Source: Candidatus Nomurabacteria bacterium (GTDB taxonomy: Bacteria > Patescibacteriota > Minisyncoccia > Phycocordibacterales > SBAW01). From it: a DNA stretch of 64,000 nucleotides. Where the stretch lies: NCBI GenBank assembly GCA_943356415.1, contig CALREW010000002.1:6639-70638 (forward strand), given 5' to 3'. Below the pieces are notes generated by a model, which saw only the letters and a program-made list of their open reading frames with translations, made no database searches and was not told the DNA's origin. Positions within the stretch are counted from its first letter, which is position 1. Every line of letters begins with the position of its first letter. Below are positions 46,099 through 50,892 of this stretch, one piece after another. A program made the translations under genes and the position numbers.

Positions 46099-46470
46099 TT
46101 ACTTTCCGAACCACAGGCGCAACCAACCATGCATCATTTCTATTTCACTGCTCTGAACCGTAATAATGTCATCCGCCATTTTGAGGAGTTCCGGTCGTGT
46201 GGTTCCCTCCTTTAGAACTTTCGCCATCGCAATCGCTCCCTCATGGTGTTCAATCATTCCGACGAGAAATGCTTCTTCAAGCGCGGCGCCAGTCTTTCCA
46301 TCAAGCGAAGCAGTCATCGAACTCATGGTGTCACCCATCGTCATCGAAGAATGATCGACGACTGTGGTTGCGCTCGGCGCAGTTTTTGGCGCAACCATAT
46401 AACCAAGTCCGAAACCAAGCACAAGACCGACGATACCCACAACAATGACGCTGTTTTGTTTCATATACAT
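46099..46470 (-). CDS. DUF305 family protein
   Basis: FLVGMIEHHEGAIAMA...SEIEMMHGWL. Confidence 0.6.
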   Translation of the reverse strand: MYMKQNSVIVVGIVGLVLGFGLGYMVAPKTAPSATTVVDHSSMTMGDTMSSMTASLDGKTGAALEEAFLVGMIEHHEGAIAMAKVLKEGTTRPELLKMADDIITVQSSEIEMMHGWLRLWFGK

Positions 46471-46869
46471 TTACTCTTTAGGTTTAAGGTCGAGACAAAC
46501 CGAATTCATACAGTAACGCTTCCCTGTACTTTCAGGCCCATCGTCAAATACATGTCCGAGATGCCCACGACACCGCGAGCAAACCACTTCAGTTCGATGC
46601 ATGCCGTGACTACTGTCTTCAATAAATTCCACCGCACCAGGAAGCGCCTGATCAAACGACGGCCAACCAGTGCCGGATTCAAACTTAGCGTCTGAAGCAA
46701 ACAACTCATTCCCGCACGCGGCGCACGTGTACGTTCCTTCTCGCTTTTCATGAAGAAGGGCTCCGGTGCCAGGCGCCTCAGTCCCCTTCTCACGCAATAT
46801 GTGATATTGCTCGGGCGTTAGCTTTTCCTTCCACTGATCTTCATTCTGAGGAATATTGTTCTCTCGCAT
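46471..46869 (-). CDS. msrB: peptide-methionine (R)-S-oxide reductase MsrB
   Basis: Two CxxC zinc motifs and the catalytic C-terminal RCRGHLGHVFDDGP motif. Confidence 0.9.
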   Translation of the reverse strand: MRENNIPQNEDQWKEKLTPEQYHILREKGTEAPGTGALLHEKREGTYTCAACGNELFASDAKFESGTGWPSFDQALPGAVEFIEDSSHGMHRTEVVCSRCRGHLGHVFDDGPESTGKRYCMNSVCLDLKPKE

Positions 46870-46874
46870 ATTAA

Positions 46875-47414
46875 TTATCCGTTTGCTTTTAATAGCGCCG
46901 CGAATTCTTTTTGAACTTTTTCAAGCTTGGGGTTAATCACAACCTGACAATATCCCTGCGTTTTATTGCGTTCGTAATAATCCTTGTGACTTTGTTCCGC
47001 TTCATAAAAAGTTGTTTTAGGAACTACCTCCGTTGTGATTTGGCTTCCATTTGGATTCGAGTTGTTTAAATCAGTGACAAATTGTTTTGCTTCTTTTTCC
47101 TGCTCCTCTGTTTCAGCAACAATAATCGAGCGATACTGCGTACCAATGTCGTTGCCTTGACGGTTAAGCGTCGTCGGATCGTGCGACGCAAAAAAGACCG
47201 TGAGCAAGGTATGGAATGAAACGAGCGTAGGGTCGTACTCAATTTTTATTACTTCCGCATGCCCAGTCTCTCCGGAACAAACCTGCAAATACGTGGGGTT
47301 CTCCGTGCGTCCCGCAGCATAGCCAGGTTCTACAGCAATAACCCCCTTGATCATCTTAAAAACCGCTTCGGTACACCAGAAACACCCGCCTCCAAAGATT
47401 GCTGTTTGAGTCAT
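46875..47414 (-). CDS. msrA: peptide-methionine (S)-S-oxide reductase MsrA
   Basis: GGGCFWCTEAVF catalytic motif. Confidence 0.9.
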   Translation of the reverse strand: MTQTAIFGGGCFWCTEAVFKMIKGVIAVEPGYAAGRTENPTYLQVCSGETGHAEVIKIEYDPTLVSFHTLLTVFFASHDPTTLNRQGNDIGTQYRSIIVAETEEQEKEAKQFVTDLNNSNPNGSQITTEVVPKTTFYEAEQSHKDYYERNKTQGYCQVVINPKLEKVQKEFAALLKANG

Positions 47415-47503
47415 GTCTGCGAATAAGGTGCTAAATGCTAGTTAAACCTTCAGGAACTTCGTAGTCAATTGTACCCTCCGTTTTTAGGTCTACGAGATAC
47501 TAA

Positions 47504-48568
47504 TTATCCGAAAGTAAAAGCATAGAAACGAACTCTTCCCTCTTTTACTCGCAGTTCGAGTTGGTGGGACTCTGCAGAATCTGCGTGCATCACATGGTAG
47601 AGTTTGCTTTCTCTTACCGTTATTACTCCGTCAACGACGTCAGTTTGAGTGAGCGTCCCTACCACCACATCGTCAATGAGAACTTCTACAGCAGAGGGGC
47701 TGTCCGCAGCCGCAACAATATAAACATCCTTTGCATCATATCGGTACACAACGGACGCTCCTGTTGCCCTCGTCTCTGCGTACTCAGGCCCAATAGCCCA
47801 CGAACCACTGAGATAGAGCGTATTTGAAGCAAGTGTCCCTGGCACAACAAAGGTATCCGTCACAGGAGCGCCCGGTATGCCGTTGCCAAGCCGTTCATTT
47901 CTAAGCGATCCAAAGTACGTCTCAGGACTTTGCGTCTCAACAATATCTTTACGCACCTTTGATGCAGCAAGATTCCCGACTAAAGCATCGTTATTAGTTT
48001 CTCCAAGTACGTGAGCTCGCTCGTCGAGCAATGCACGTATTTTCGTCTCCGTTTCTTCGTACCCACCTTCTCCGATGTGGTCATATACAACATTGCCATG
48101 AATATCGATAAGATATTTATGCGGCCAGTAGCTATTGTGATACGCGTTCCAGGTACCATACGCATTATCCAGAACAATGGGAAATGTCAGTCCGAATTGT
48201 GAAGCTGCAGCTTTCACGTTGGCGATATCCTTCTCGAAAGCGAACTCGGGGGTGTGTATGGCAACAATCTCAAACCCCTTGTCATGATAGGCCTCGTACC
48301 ACGCACGAAGGTACGGGAAGGTGCGCTGACAATTGATGCAACTGTAGGTTAAGAAGTCGACCAATATCACCTTTTTGCCGACAATATCTTTCAACGCTAT
48401 CGGGCCGGTATTAACGAAACCTGAAGGGTTAACTATCTCTGTGTATGGTGTTCCTGCGTACATTTCTGCAGCGTTTTTTTGTATGGCGGGTGCTTTGCTA
48501 AAGATAAGGGCAAGGCTGAGTGCCGCAACTATCAAAACAACTCCCGCAATGGCGTAGATTACTTTCAT
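47504..48568 (-). CDS. thioredoxin-fold thiol-disulfide oxidoreductase (TlpA/ResA-like) with an extra C-terminal domain
   Basis: Signal anchor plus a redoxin domain with CxxC (LTYSCINCQRTFPYL). Its stop overlaps the upstream ccdA. Confidence 0.75.
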   Translation of the reverse strand: MKVIYAIAGVVLIVAALSLALIFSKAPAIQKNAAEMYAGTPYTEIVNPSGFVNTGPIALKDIVGKKVILVDFLTYSCINCQRTFPYLRAWYEAYHDKGFEIVAIHTPEFAFEKDIANVKAAASQFGLTFPIVLDNAYGTWNAYHNSYWPHKYLIDIHGNVVYDHIGEGGYEETETKIRALLDERAHVLGETNNDALVGNLAASKVRKDIVETQSPETYFGSLRNERLGNGIPGAPVTDTFVVPGTLASNTLYLSGSWAIGPEYAETRATGASVVYRYDAKDVYIVAAADSPSAVEVLIDDVVVGTLTQTDVVDGVITVRESKLYHVMHADSAESHQLELRVKEGRVRFYAFTFG

Positions 48569-49299
48569 GATTGTGGCTGCACGCGCTGAAGCAGCAGCTG
48601 TTCTACTTTTGTAACGTCGATATATCCACTGTTGAGGATAGTTGTCTCAATTTTTTTCTCGAAACCAAACGCGATCGAAAGACCCAGAATAATAAACAAA
48701 ACTCCAATACCTCTTTTAAAGTAGCCGCGCGAGTCTGAAATCGCCGCGAGGCGATTTGCAAAACGCTGACCAAACAGTGCGACGAGTATTAACATGAGAG
48801 AGAGCCCCACTACGTATGCAAACAAATACAATGTCCCGAGCGCAAAGGAAGCCGGTAGTACCGAGGCAAGGATAACGAAGTATGTCGGCGAGCACGTGGA
48901 GAAAACTGGACCGAGGGCAGCGCCAACAACAACGTCACCCCATAGACTCTTCCCGCGAGCGCCTGCGCCAAGTGCATTATTAGACATCACAGAAAGACGC
49001 TGTACCCCAGGCAGATACTCCCACAGTGCAGGCATCGCAAGCGTTAAACCGAAGAGCGTTAGTATTCCGCCTGAAAGATAGGCCCACGCAGCAGCCGGCA
49101 CCATCACAAAAGCCGTAGACACCTTAAGAACGTAGGTGAAGAAGATGATAGACGCTGCAAGAGAAGCAACGACAACATACGGCGTCGCACGGCTCTTGCC
49201 AGTCGCCGCAGTCCCAAGCACGACAGGCAAAAGCGGCAAAATGCACGGAGCAAGAACCGTTAAGACACCGGCTAAAAATGAGACAGCGAGAAAGGTCAT
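48565..49299 (-). CDS. ccdA: cytochrome c-type biogenesis protein CcdA (DsbD family thiol-disulfide transporter)
   Basis: Six TM helices and the conserved Cys in LAPCILPLLPVVL. Confidence 0.8.
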   Translation of the reverse strand: MTFLAVSFLAGVLTVLAPCILPLLPVVLGTAATGKSRATPYVVVASLAASIIFFTYVLKVSTAFVMVPAAAWAYLSGGILTLFGLTLAMPALWEYLPGVQRLSVMSNNALGAGARGKSLWGDVVVGAALGPVFSTCSPTYFVILASVLPASFALGTLYLFAYVVGLSLMLILVALFGQRFANRLAAISDSRGYFKRGIGVLFIILGLSIAFGFEKKIETTILNSGYIDVTKVEQLLLQRVQPQS

Positions 49300-49301
49300 A
49301 C

Positions 49302-49574
49302 CTATTGAGACATGGCGCCGTCCTTCTTCATCATTGAATCACCTTCGTTCTTCATAGCACCACTGCTCATGGTCGAATCATCCTTTTTCATCATGTCGGC
49401 ATCACTCATTGAGGACGTCGCCATTGATTCGTCCTTTACTGGAGCATCTTTTTGCATCATCGTTGCGTCTTCTTTTGCGACCATTGCATCATTACGAGAA
49501 GTATTAAAGTGCCATAGCACCCCCGCTCCCCCAACAACAATGACGAGTCCAATAATCCACAGTGCTGCTTTCAT
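49302..49574 (-). CDS. Met-rich small secreted protein
   Basis: 90 aa with a signal anchor, then a tail of about 65 aa carrying 15 Met in repeats (MMQKD, DADMMKKDDSTM, DSMMKKDGAMS). It sits 3 nt upstream of ccdA. Confidence 0.5.
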   Translation of the reverse strand: MKAALWIIGLVIVVGGAGVLWHFNTSRNDAMVAKEDATMMQKDAPVKDESMATSSMSDADMMKKDDSTMSSGAMKNEGDSMMKKDGAMSQ

Positions 49575-49630
49575 AGATAGAAATGTTTTTTATCGCTTGT
49601 ATATAAAAAGTGTAAGCGAAAGAAATATGA

Positions 49631-49650
49631 ATGTAAAGTTGACTTTACAT
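49631..49650. promoter_or_regulatory. candidate operator palindrome ATGTAAAG-N4-CTTTACAT, copy 1
   Basis: Perfect 8-4-8 palindrome 57 nt upstream of the Met-rich gene start. It is identical in its arms to copy 2 at 50285. Confidence 0.5.
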
Positions 49651-49682
49651 TACCTCTGTGGAGAACTGCATGTTCCACGGCA

Positions 49683-50048
49683 CTAGCGACGACTGTCGAT
49701 GTAGAGACGACTACCAAGCTTGCCTAGAAGCATCGCCACCAACCCGCCTACAAGCCACGGATCAACAGCGTGTGAAAACGATTGCACAGCAACTCCAACG
49801 ACCATAACTCCTGCACCAACAAGATATGCTGCACGTCCTGCAAAGGTGCGGTTTGCTTCGTCACGCTCATCCTGAGCATCTTCACGTAGGACAAAGGCCG
49901 CAAAAAGCCCAAACACGACAAGCGCTGCAGCTGCGATGCCCATAACTACCATGCTCGGCATAAATAAATCGAATGGATTAAGCAAAACAAGTGCCAGCGC
50001 AGCGAGTGCAGCGGCGGCGATGCCCTCTTTAAGATAGCTGGTGTTCAT
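49683..50048 (-). CDS. membrane protein partner of the XRE regulator (3-4 TM helices)
   Basis: Overlaps the XRE gene stop by 4 nt, indicating an operon, and is hydrophobic throughout. Confidence 0.5.
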   Translation of the reverse strand: MNTSYLKEGIAAAALAALALVLLNPFDLFMPSMVVMGIAAAALVVFGLFAAFVLREDAQDERDEANRTFAGRAAYLVGAGVMVVGVAVQSFSHAVDPWLVGGLVAMLLGKLGSRLYIDSRR

Positions 50049-50251
50049 GATGATATTGAAAATAATTTCTCGACGGGCACTGAGAATAATTTTGCAAGCT
50101 TAAGTGCGAGCAAAACAGAGGGTGTGTAATTACCCTTCTCGATAGCGATGATGGTCTGGCGGCTCACACCGACGTGCTCGGCTACATCCTCCTGCGTCAT
50201 CATTGCTTTTGTGCGTAACACATTCACCGTATTGCTAACACGCGCTGTCAT
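50045..50251 (-). CDS. XRE-family helix-turn-helix transcriptional regulator
   Basis: Cro/C1-type HTH: LRTKAMMTQEDVAEHVGVSRQTIIAIEKG. Confidence 0.85.
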   Translation of the reverse strand: MTARVSNTVNVLRTKAMMTQEDVAEHVGVSRQTIIAIEKGNYTPSVLLALKLAKLFSVPVEKLFSISS

Positions 50252-50284: not shown

Positions 50285-50304
50285 ATGTAAAGCGGTCTTT
50301 ACAT
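50285..50304. promoter_or_regulatory. candidate operator palindrome ATGTAAAG-N4-CTTTACAT, copy 2
   Basis: Perfect palindrome 33 nt upstream of the XRE start codon. Confidence 0.5.
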
Positions 50305-50418: not shown

Positions 50419-50892
50419 ATGCGTACCTTCTTAAGCCTTGCGTGCGCCCTTTTTGCCACCGCAGCCGCTATGTCCTGGAGCACGACTGCGTCGGCGCAAC
50501 CGACACAGAGCGAACTGCCGAAGGCTGACCGCGACCGGTGCAACAAAGTGGGGCCCGACGGTCAGCCACTTCTGCTTCGCCCGGGAGACGAAGGCTATCG
50601 GCACGCATGTCTGCACCAGTACTACAAGCAGCTGTACGATGCCGGCAAATGTCATTGCCATACCGGTTATTGTCGGCCGACAAGGATCCGGTACGTCGCT
50701 GGCATAAGCGAGGTTCTCATCAGCGGGGTCTGGTATGAGTTTCCTCGCGAAGCGTTGAAGCGCAAAGCCGAGGTGCCGCCGGAGCTCTGGGAACACGAAG
50801 CTCACGTCTGTGCCCACCCACTCGGTGGCACCGACGAGAAGGGCCGTCCAAAAGTGAACATCGAATGCGTCATGGAAAATGCCGCAGGATGA
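50419..50892 (+). CDS. hypothetical secreted Cys-rich protein (high-GC gene)
   Basis: Signal peptide MRTFLSLACALFATAAAMS, 9 Cys including CHCHTGYC. The gene is about 61% GC, with its own RBS GAGGGGAG and a downstream hairpin. Confidence 0.5.
   Translation: MRTFLSLACALFATAAAMSWSTTASAQPTQSELPKADRDRCNKVGPDGQPLLLRPGDEGYRHACLHQYYKQLYDAGKCHCHTGYCRPTRIRYVAGISEVLISGVWYEFPREALKRKAEVPPELWEHEAHVCAHPLGGTDEKGRPKVNIECVMENAAG

Follow-up and report, generated by a model that had tools for sequence, protein, structure and literature searches.

The 64,000-nucleotide (nt) stretch of DNA from Candidatus Nomurabacteria bacterium that is analysed here (the window) carries on its minus strand an operon for the thiol-disulfide electron conduit CcdA and an anchored TlpA-like reductase and, at its head, a small open reading frame (ORF) for a methionine-rich protein of 90 amino acids (aa), which is the subject of this account (Table 1). 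The protein consists of an N-terminal anchor and a low-complexity tail. Twelve of its 13 Met lie within the last 65 residues (18.5%), in the company of 10 Asp, 10 Ser, 8 Lys and 8 Ala; 34% of these residues are charged, and the tail is devoid of Cys, His, Trp, Tyr, Phe, Leu and Ile. An earlier interpretation made from this DNA alone (the sequence-only reading) had put the number of Met in this segment at about 15, which is too many, but its emphasis on strong Met richness stands: the ORF has the highest Met fraction of the 184 in the window that encode at least 60 aa (binomial P ~2e-8 against a background of 2.2% Met in window ORFs). The repeats that it quoted, of the MMQKD and MMKKD types, are also there, as three MM-x-K-D units at residues 39 (MM-Q-K-D), 61 and 81 (both MM-K-K-D). 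No tandem repeat was detected at the DNA level within the gene, and recent slippage is therefore not the origin of the repeats in the tail.

The ORF is a genuine gene, and the identical 90-aa sequence is recorded in independent assemblies. A 124-aa ORF on the plus strand (49312-49686) mirrors it and exceeds it in length, so that a length-greedy gene caller selects the antisense frame instead. That frame was ruled out as a real gene, since it is the sense ORF that abuts ccdA and has syntenic orthologs under selection. Such choices by gene callers may partly account for the poor annotation of the protein family that is described below.

Only 2 nt separate the stop codon of the Met-rich gene from the ccdA start at 49299 (the adjacency had been noted correctly, the spacing as 3 nt), and ccdA and tlpA overlap by 4 nt. 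The view that a small Met-rich protein of the exported type heads a ccdA-tlpA operon and lies under an operator is thus upheld. CcdA has 3431 homologs, in which Cys19 and Cys136 are invariant; those at 65-73% identity bear the names of Patescibacteria (Paceibacteria/Kaiserbacteria-like). The TlpA-like protein, which matches the NCBIfam ResA subfamily below the cut-off, has the active site C-I-N-C and retains the cis-proline (W-P-H), making it an ordinary reductase. On the other side of the Met-rich gene lie the genes for a helix-turn-helix (HTH) regulator of the Xre type, which has no sensor domain, and for a protein with four transmembrane (TM) segments, whose start is overlapped by the HTH stop; conserved features of the four-TM protein are P..WMP, E...DERE, R72, G78 and M106. 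The palindrome TGTAAAG-N4-CTTTACA (18 bp), previously put forward as a candidate operator, occurs exactly twice in the 64 kb, with 0.18 copies expected by chance, and each copy covers a predicted -35 element. That of the operon promoter (TTTACA, 49637-49632, within the copy O1; 17-nt spacer; -10 TACACT, 49614-49609) belongs to a predicted promoter 35 nt upstream of the Met-rich start codon. The other copy, O2, lies on the -35 element of the HTH gene, which suggests autoregulation. Pfam also bears out ccdA, tlpA, msrA and msrB as neighbours, MsrA and MsrB (methionine sulfoxide reductases, Msr) being without N-terminal extension and predicted to be cytoplasmic.

Table 1. The Met-rich gene, its operon, its control elements and the adjoining genes (positions are those of the window).
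Feature	Position	Strand	Basis or remark
Met-rich anchored protein gene	49302..49574	minus	ORF and translation, 90 aa, MKAALWIIGLVIVVGGAGVLWHFNTSRNDAMVAKEDATMMQKDAPVKDESMATSSMSDADMMKKDDSTMSSGAMKNEGDSMMKKDGAMSQ
Anchor, ~residues 3-21	nt 49512-49568	minus	Hydrophobic stretch of the Met-rich ORF
Disordered Met/Asp/Lys/Ser tail, residues 26-90	nt 49305-49499	minus	Part of the Met-rich ORF
ccdA, membrane thiol-disulfide electron conduit	48565..49299	minus	Pfam DsbD_2/DsbD_TM
Anchored TlpA/ResA-like reductase with DipZ-type C-terminal domain	47504..48568	minus	Pfam Redoxin/AhpC-TSA and Thioredoxin_10
Predicted sigma-70-type operon promoter	49609..49637	minus	Consensus scan; prediction only
Operator O1, palindrome TGTAAAGTTGACTTTACA	49632..49649	.	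58 nt upstream of the Met-rich start codon
121-aa four-TM protein gene, HTH partner	49683..50048	minus	Syntenic in 45 loci; no Pfam family
68-aa Xre-type HTH regulator gene	50045..50251	minus	Pfam HTH_3 4e-14; syntenic
Operator O2, TGTAAAGCGGTCTTTACA	50286..50303	.	Overlaps the -35 of the predicted HTH promoter
msrA	46875..47414	minus	Pfam PMSR 7e-62; GCFWC at residues 11-15; predicted cytoplasmic
msrB	46471..46869	minus	Pfam SelR 6e-50; no signal sequence; predicted cytoplasmic
Anchored DUF305/CopM-like protein gene, directly after msrB	46099..46470	minus	Pfam DUF305 7e-18

A direct homology search (word index) with the 90-aa protein returned only the protein itself, and a search of Pfam and NCBIfam nothing meaningful; matches to CpaB and FliL were dismissed as weak matches to an anchor or to low complexity. 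Relatives were therefore gathered by way of CcdA: 80 related loci of Patescibacteria, from different species, were fetched and the gene upstream of ccdA (X) was examined in each, with linker boundaries and start codons set heuristically. (The counts over 81 loci that follow are for these 80 and the window.) The unit that is conserved across the loci comprises the HTH regulator, the four-TM protein, X, CcdA and the TlpA-like reductase. In 61 loci X is a protein of 150-270 aa made up of an N-terminal anchor, a low-complexity linker (median 50 aa) and a C-terminal thioredoxin domain (PF00085) with a WCP[T/S]C active site. Met makes up 15% or more of the linker in 30 of these 61 fusions, with units resembling AMMEKD, AMMKKD and AMMQKD; the linkers of deep-branching clades contain no Met and abound in Pro, Thr, Glu and Ala. 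X is reduced to an anchor and a Met-rich tail in eight loci, the window and L031, L035, L037, L038, L044, L072 and L077, where it is 71-96 aa long with 17-29% Met and ends 2-23 nt ahead of ccdA; L024 provides a ninth stand-alone gene.

The window protein fits this family in being the first gene upstream of ccdA, behind the operator, with an anchor that leads into a …N-D-A-M-M… linker. A profile of anchor and linker constructed from 37 fusions finds the Met-rich ORF as its sole match among 894 window ORFs (E = 4.5e-11), and the end of the tail (…DGAMSQ) coincides with the junction of linker and domain in the fusions (…GAMM-x-K/GSYE…, the slash marking the junction). A displaced thioredoxin domain (WCP[T/S]C…Q-H-T) was found neither in the 64-kb window nor within 10 kb in the other stand-alone loci. 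With no such domain anywhere in the window, its protein is a thioredoxin-less derivative of X. Calling it a small Met-rich protein, as had been done, is accurate as far as it goes, but it is one form of a protein that otherwise combines anchor, Met-rich linker and thioredoxin, a relationship that is invisible from the window alone. In a simple neighbour-joining tree of CcdA, stand-alone forms fall into at least four separate clades nested among fusions, with L024 as a fifth lineage; this scattering implies repeated loss of the thioredoxin domain, with anchor and Met-rich tail retained.

What has been kept is under purifying selection, the ratios of nonsynonymous to synonymous substitution (dN/dS) in three stand-alone ortholog pairs being 0.12, 0.14 and 0.31 at dS of 0.7-0.9 (ccdA in the same pairs, 0.03-0.11). 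Met columns are the better conserved: 16 of 17 in the pair L072/L077, against 29 of 42 other columns, and 18 of 18 in L031/L035, against 33 of 43 (overall P 0.03). Met density is retained in syntenic orthologs across a large clade in which the sequences can barely be aligned, and it was on this outcome that the sequence-only reading had staked its case. The enrichment is also particular to X. Its linker has a median of 22% Met, compared with 2% (maximum 11%) in the juxtamembrane segments of other anchored proteins of the same loci (P 7e-11), so that the anchored proteins of these genomes do not have Met-rich stalks as a rule.

The family extends well beyond these loci. Searching 5.8 billion proteins with the profile added some 20 small anchored Met-rich proteins, and searching 1.84 billion cluster representatives yielded 142 clusters (at 50% identity), all annotated 'hypothetical', of which ~89 are stand-alone (median 82 aa, ~20% Met) and 47 have a WCxxC thioredoxin. 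All five of the stand-alone genes that were found without recourse to ccdA have the four-TM/HTH pair upstream and/or CcdA or DipZ downstream. As judged by sequence comparison, then, the window protein belongs to a Patescibacteria-wide 'anchor + Met-rich module' family; the literature that was searched yielded no description of such a module in Patescibacteria.

The operator travels with the module. Of 38 Met-rich loci, 37 have the palindrome no more than 200 nt upstream of X, against 6 of 17 Met-poor ones (not corrected for phylogeny); it also stands at each of the five stand-alone genes found independently of ccdA, and a second, related palindrome precedes the HTH gene in many loci. In L024 (6789-7093) the stand-alone gene has moved behind tlpA and has a private, perfect copy of the operator (TGTAAAGTAGACTTTACA), while a second operator stays ahead of ccdA. 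Conserved in dozens of Patescibacterial species (loci L003-L080), the palindrome probably defines a small regulon of the Xre-HTH repressor and the four-TM protein, which is of no known family. We infer an autoregulated repressor that would be released by way of its four-TM membrane partner.

On inspection, the anchor of the window protein is a hydrophobic stretch of 19-21 residues with an aromatic belt and with no AxA-type site downstream, and it is more likely to be an uncleaved anchor than the signal of a secreted product, the label that had been attached to it. Anchors of the family average 21 residues; the N flank is typically M-x-K, with a charge of +1 and without acidic residues, and the first 15 residues past the anchor carry a net negative charge. 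In Met-poor homologs the linker is PT-rich and no positive charge follows the TM segment. An N-in/C-out orientation with an extracytoplasmic tail is favoured by the flank charges, by the extracytoplasmic nature of partner domains and by the logic of CcdA function. In the AlphaFold model of the fusion protein P0139 the predicted local distance difference test score (pLDDT) is below 50 in the linker and 85-94 in the thioredoxin domain, consistent with a disordered tether.

What the tail might hold is suggested by the company that the module keeps. Among the 17 non-thioredoxin members of the family, four have plastocyanin/azurin-type cupredoxins (P0187, P0193, P0237 and P0235) and one has CopC (P0271). 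Cupredoxin and CopC domains are rare in these small genomes. The module is also fused to Lipoprotein_15 (Yx(FWY)xxD repeat), RskA_C, DUF6799, YceI and PG_binding_1 (P0162, P0267, P0174, P0209, P0269, P0149, P0230 and P0158), and several of these other domains might share a ligand or stress context with it. The thioredoxin domain of X is itself unusual, for 64 of 65 sequences have His where E. coli TrxA has cis-Pro76 (…KYGVTxQHT…), and the domain conserves GSYExY and DYD motifs besides (for example, in L014:4451-4993, P0130 and P0139). A passage in PMC2757866 has the cis-proline as more conserved across the thioredoxin fold than CXXC itself and, citing Su et al. 2007, as thought to block metal binding by the CXXC thiolates. 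The X thioredoxin could accordingly be a metal-binding, or otherwise non-canonical, subfamily. As to the reductases, those of the TlpA type keep copper chaperones reduced, and the copper-induced ScsB/ScsD pair of Salmonella is similarly organised (bioRxiv 10.64898/2026.05.22.727170).

In 5 of the 81 loci a gene for a cupredoxin, a P-type ATPase or a CopM-like protein is found no more than 5 kb from the operon. L010 has a His-rich CopB-type P-type ATPase with a CPH motif between X and ccdA (L010:2937-4967), L062 a related P-type ATPase (L062:8423-10717, assigned by relatedness, not by its metal motif), and anchored cupredoxins adjoin msrB in L057 (8033-8569) and follow tlpA in L011 (8588-9082). 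MMHD repeats are found in 15 of 85 stand-alone tails. In two proteins, L029:1032-1928 and P0205, a domain of ~100 aa with the motif PSHIH(S/A)GSC and no Pfam match separates the Met-rich linker from the thioredoxin; this HIHxGSC domain presumably recalls the copper-site region of SodC.

Our tentative preference, which we hold with rather less than even confidence, is for the tail as an extracytoplasmic sponge of thioethers that would take up Cu(I), the slightly favoured ligand, together with the oxidants of copper stress. The protein would be anchored by a single pass, N-in/C-out, with a disordered tail of (A/T/S)-M-M-(K/E/Q/H)-x-D-like units outside; in the lineage of the window the thioredoxin domain has been cleanly lost and the anchor and Met-rich module retained. 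The gene would be transcribed ahead of those for CcdA and the anchored TlpA/DipZ-type reductase, as the leading cistron of their common operon, from a promoter with its -35 element inside the 18-bp operator that is shared with the adjacent, autoregulated Xre-HTH/four-TM pair. Envelope stress would release the repressor, whereupon thioethers would densely coat the outside of the membrane beside the cysteine relay; there the tails would sponge up thiophilic agents, most likely Cu(I) and the oxidants that copper stress generates, and hold them before they attack the CXXC relay and client proteins.

The strongest competitor is a sacrificial sink for oxidants of the MrpX kind, in which the tethered Met would be oxidised by hypochlorite, chloramines or peroxide and thereby spare the CXXC relay and other envelope proteins. 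The sink might be truly sacrificial, with turnover replacing the protein and peptides containing methionine sulfoxide being re-imported and reduced by cytoplasmic MsrA/MsrB, or it might be recycled by some exported reductase. MrpX of Azospira, at 20% Met and 44% charged residues, is an exported protein that hypochlorite oxidises and periplasmic MsrP reduces again (PMC4436054), and the pooled Met-rich linkers are nearly identical in composition: 21.3% Met, 14.3% Lys, 13.9% Glu and 11.8% Asp, with 40% charged. The MxKDx units are those of proteobacterial 'MXKDX repeat' proteins, among them BcrX of Brucella, which is annotated as such (PMC8315932), and MrpX; a protein of this proteobacterial type, P0138, scores weakly against the family profile. 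MsrA and MsrB, which adjoin the operon in 11 and 8 of the 81 loci, lie co-oriented 3-40 nt from tlpA in L029, L037, L044 and L061, and operons of CcdA, Trx and MsrAB are a known design for extracytoplasmic Met repair. The pairing with msrAB that the sequence-only reading stressed is not a conserved one: some 85% of the loci have no msrAB nearby, the conserved partners are CcdA, TlpA and the Xre-HTH/four-TM pair, and Met richness is not significantly associated with adjacent msrAB (7 of 11 Msr loci are Met-rich, by hand count, compared with 38 of 69 overall). All 11 MsrA and all 8 MsrB adjoining the operon begin directly with the catalytic domain, with no signal peptide, lipobox or TM anchor, and there is consequently no visible reductase to recycle an extracytoplasmic sink. 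Neither MsrP/MsrQ (YedYZ) in the window operon or the 80 related loci nor an ECF (extracytoplasmic function) sigma factor has been encountered. Met reacts slowly with H2O2, moreover, and for organisms of groundwater and freshwater a source of reactive chlorine is not evident. We regard an oxidant sink as a serious possibility, but a somewhat doubtful one. It leaves unexplained the partner domains (cupredoxin, CopC and the thioredoxin with His for cis-proline), which make Cu(I) binding no less likely than sacrificial oxidation. The sacrificial role originally proposed is in this sense partly sustained, by the match in composition to MrpX, and partly weakened, by the signal-less Msr and the copper-domain fusions. 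The two explanations stand nearly level and are not mutually exclusive; the slight edge of the thiophile/Cu(I) sponge comes from its being alone in accounting for the partner domains. Several observations, at the same time, weigh against it. Pooled linkers contain 182 MM but only 17 MxM and 7 MxxM, with His at 0.1% and no Cys, and the window tail, with no His, is unlike classical Cu(I) 'Mets' motifs and exactly like MrpX (doublets in place of MxxM, and the want of His and Cys, count in favour of the sink). The X thioredoxin was ruled out as Sco-like, sequence and fold searches returning classical thioredoxins only, so that the idea of a metal site comes down to the substitution of His for the cis-proline. 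L010, the sole operon with a CopB ATPase, has a Met-poor linker and no operator; a phmmer search of the 64-kb window with cupredoxin, CopC, CopB, SodC-like and Lipoprotein_15 queries found only the DUF305 gene; MsrA and MsrB, the only recurrent neighbours outside the core, point to Met oxidation; and Xre-type regulators are not, to our knowledge, copper sensors. The loci, too, were sampled through CcdA with statistics that ignore relatedness, and matches to the profile are partly compositional.

Three further alternatives are much less probable. That the tail is a sensory input, its oxidation or metal loading being read by the four-TM protein, which then frees the operator of the Xre repressor, would make the Met-rich gene an accessory of signalling rather than a buffer. 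It would explain why Met-rich linkers occur together with the HTH/four-TM pair and operator (median 18% versus 2.6% Met, P 1.7e-4), as does the operator with Met-rich X, and the four-TM protein keeps W-M-P in the loop after TM1 and Met106. These co-occurrences may be purely phylogenetic, however, and sensing has no need of 10-30 Met or of a length that varies so much; outside the operon, unrelated domains too are tethered by the module, and we consider a sensor improbable. A functionless remnant or mere spacer, the stalk left over when the thioredoxin was deleted, is already disfavoured and, in our estimate, very improbable: the stalks of deep-branching clades, being Met-free and PT/E-rich, indicate that a stalk needs no Met, and the window ORF terminates exactly at the linker-domain junction, but the stand-alone pairs are under purifying selection, stand-alone forms have arisen in at least five independent lineages and make up ~89 clusters library-wide, that of L024 has an operator of its own, their tails equal or exceed fusion linkers in Met, and the enrichment is particular to X within each genome. 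Least probable by our reckoning is an inverted topology, with the tail a cytoplasmic buffer of Met served directly by MsrA/MsrB and, as a corollary, the thioredoxin domain of the fusions a dedicated cytoplasmic electron donor of CcdA. The signal-less Msr neighbours would be accounted for, and positive charges alone are not decisive (0-1 Lys in many N flanks, against 1-4 in the 15 residues that follow the TM segment), yet the net charge difference points to N-in/C-out, PT-rich stalks like those of the Met-poor homologs are typically extracellular, and the module also tethers cupredoxins, CopC, peptidoglycan-binding and lipoprotein-type domains that are extracytoplasmic. We know, furthermore, of no membrane-tethered cytoplasmic donor of CcdA.

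Comparison with established systems sets the putative sponge apart from each of them. Among the closest are MrpX of Azospira suillum and BcrX of Brucella, which are likewise small exported proteins composed almost entirely of Met (~20%) and charged residues, with M-x-K-D-x-like units, and whose genes head or adjoin an operon for redox repair in the envelope under a dedicated stress regulator (PMC4436054, PMC8315932). The window tail, with three MxKDx units, 18.5% Met and 34% of its residues charged, matches MrpX in composition. MrpX, however, is soluble and has a cleavable signal peptide where the window protein has its hydrophobic stretch of 19-21 residues, a probable uncleaved anchor, and it is coupled to the molybdoenzyme MsrP/MsrQ and to an ECF sigma/anti-sigma pair where the window has CcdA, TlpA and the Xre-HTH/four-TM pair with its palindromic operator. 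Control by ECF sigma/anti-sigma (SigF/NrsF, BcrS/AbcS) or HprSR was not encountered in the Patescibacterial loci, and an exported Met-sulfoxide reductase is not visible there; the Patescibacterial module is mostly, unlike MrpX, a linker fused to folded domains. The match of the family profile to P0138 (E 5.6e-4) is to one protein and is probably compositional; homology to MrpX is not convincing. P0138 itself (L089/L090) comprises 114 aa with MMKKD repeats and a cleavable signal peptide; its gene stands beside a divergent ECF sigma gene and is itself followed by one whose product has a Tat signal. The locus looks like a proteobacterial MrpX/BcrX-MsrP locus and offers a natural contrast to the Patescibacterial arrangement.

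In the CcdA-Etrx-MsrAB2 system of Streptococcus pneumoniae, MsrAB-CcdA-Trx of Haemophilus influenzae and the Trx-MsrAB protein PilB of Neisseria (PMC13488963, PMC9404787) the Msr is exported or surface-anchored and is a client of the relay. The window and about ten other loci have the same components side by side (CcdA, an anchored extracytoplasmic thioredoxin-like protein, MsrA and MsrB), and the window has the hallmarks of such a relay, two conserved Cys in the CcdA conduit and a cis-proline in the anchored CXXC partner; its MsrA and MsrB are nevertheless separate and signal-less, their association with the operon is facultative, and those systems have no Met-rich partner. As in the TlpA pathway of Bradyrhizobium to ScoI/CoxB and in ScsABCD of Salmonella, a DsbD/CcdA-type conduit feeds an anchored TlpA-like reductase (bioRxiv 10.64898/2026.05.22.727170). 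Those copper-linked thiol reductase systems also have a small accessory envelope protein and protect or prepare Cys sites under copper and peroxide stress, but their Sco, CoxB, CueP and ScsC have no counterpart here, the accessory protein ScsA is Cys-rich where the present one has a Met-rich disordered tail or a thioredoxin with His for cis-proline, and the Salmonella Scs regulator is CpxRA rather than of the Xre type. The CcdA and TlpA-like proteins, the latter with Thioredoxin_10, reproduce the architecture of DipZ (Mycobacterium tuberculosis Rv2874-type), split over two overlapping genes in the window and contained in a single ORF in L082:4607-6238 and L084:5237-6958; CcdA-TlpA fusions of this kind also occur in L004, L078 and L080. 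No Met-rich partner is known for DipZ, nor an Xre-HTH/four-TM regulator.

Met-rich Cu(I) segments (CopC/PcoC, CusF, CopM/DUF305, the CueO insert, Ctr1 'Mets') bind through MxM or MxxM, usually with His. They share with the tail a flexible, extracytoplasmic, thioether-rich character, and relatives of the window protein do attach the module to cupredoxin or CopC; but MM doublets spaced ~9 residues apart amid Lys, Asp and Glu, in tails that mostly have no His, are not the MxM/MxxM/His motif. The protein would thus work like MrpX or like Met-rich copper segments while having the defining features of neither in full.

Met-rich peptides that are sacrificial or bind metal have so far been tied to Proteobacteria and the MsrPQ system. 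A large, unannotated family (at least 142 clusters) in Patescibacteria, with their reduced genomes, would have the same chemistry wired differently: tethered to the membrane, usually serving non-canonical thioredoxins or cuproproteins as a stalk, coupled to CcdA-TlpA/DipZ and governed by a conserved operator and the HTH/four-TM pair. More speculatively, and in our estimate rather unlikely as a whole, all of this may amount to an undescribed modular system for extracytoplasmic copper handling in Patescibacteria, made up of tether, Cys2His thioredoxin, CcdA-to-TlpA/DipZ relay and Xre-HTH/four-TM sensor. In such a system the membrane-tethered (A/T/S)MM(K/E/Q/H)xD repeats would be a 'fishing line' that gathers Cu(I); the CXXC of the atypical thioredoxin and the His that replaces its cis-proline would form a new Cys2His copper site, held reduced by the co-encoded relay from CcdA to TlpA/DipZ; and the Xre-HTH/four-TM pair would be a new envelope sensor governing the whole. 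The stand-alone form in the window would then be a minimal Cu(I) sponge, and proteobacterial MXKDX proteins might share its chemistry. The proposal provides a testable handle on envelope protection or metallation in ultra-small, largely uncultured bacteria and a hypothesis at the level of function for a small ORF that recurs but may be missed, or put on the wrong strand, by gene callers, and it draws attention to a thioredoxin subfamily with His in place of the near-universal cis-proline.

Downstream of tlpA, the three genes msrA, msrB and that of the DUF305/CopM-like protein may stand somewhat apart from the regulated operon. The gap of 89 nt between tlpA and msrA (47415-47503, minus strand) contains no operator but has, as spotted by eye, a promoter-like stretch, TTGACT-17-TTAACT, so that the three may be transcribed independently; an in-frame upstream extension of msrA is impossible in the window. 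The DUF305/CopM-like protein, which matches the NCBIfam CopM family at 7e-17 (below the cut-off), carries a short linker of Met and His, HSSMTMGDTMSSM, with the spacing of classical MxM/MxxM motifs, in contrast to the MM-K-D style of the Met-rich tail. A gene of this kind was not found beside the operon in the other 80 loci.

Beyond the HTH gene, on the plus strand (50419-50892), lies an ORF of 157 aa, a called gene in the ENA contig, whose product has a clear signal peptide (…ASA/QP, cleavage at the slash), many Cys and His residues (for example, CHCHTGYC) and no Pfam family. The stretch in which it lies is ~60% G+C, with flanks of ~47-50%, and the gene might have been acquired horizontally.

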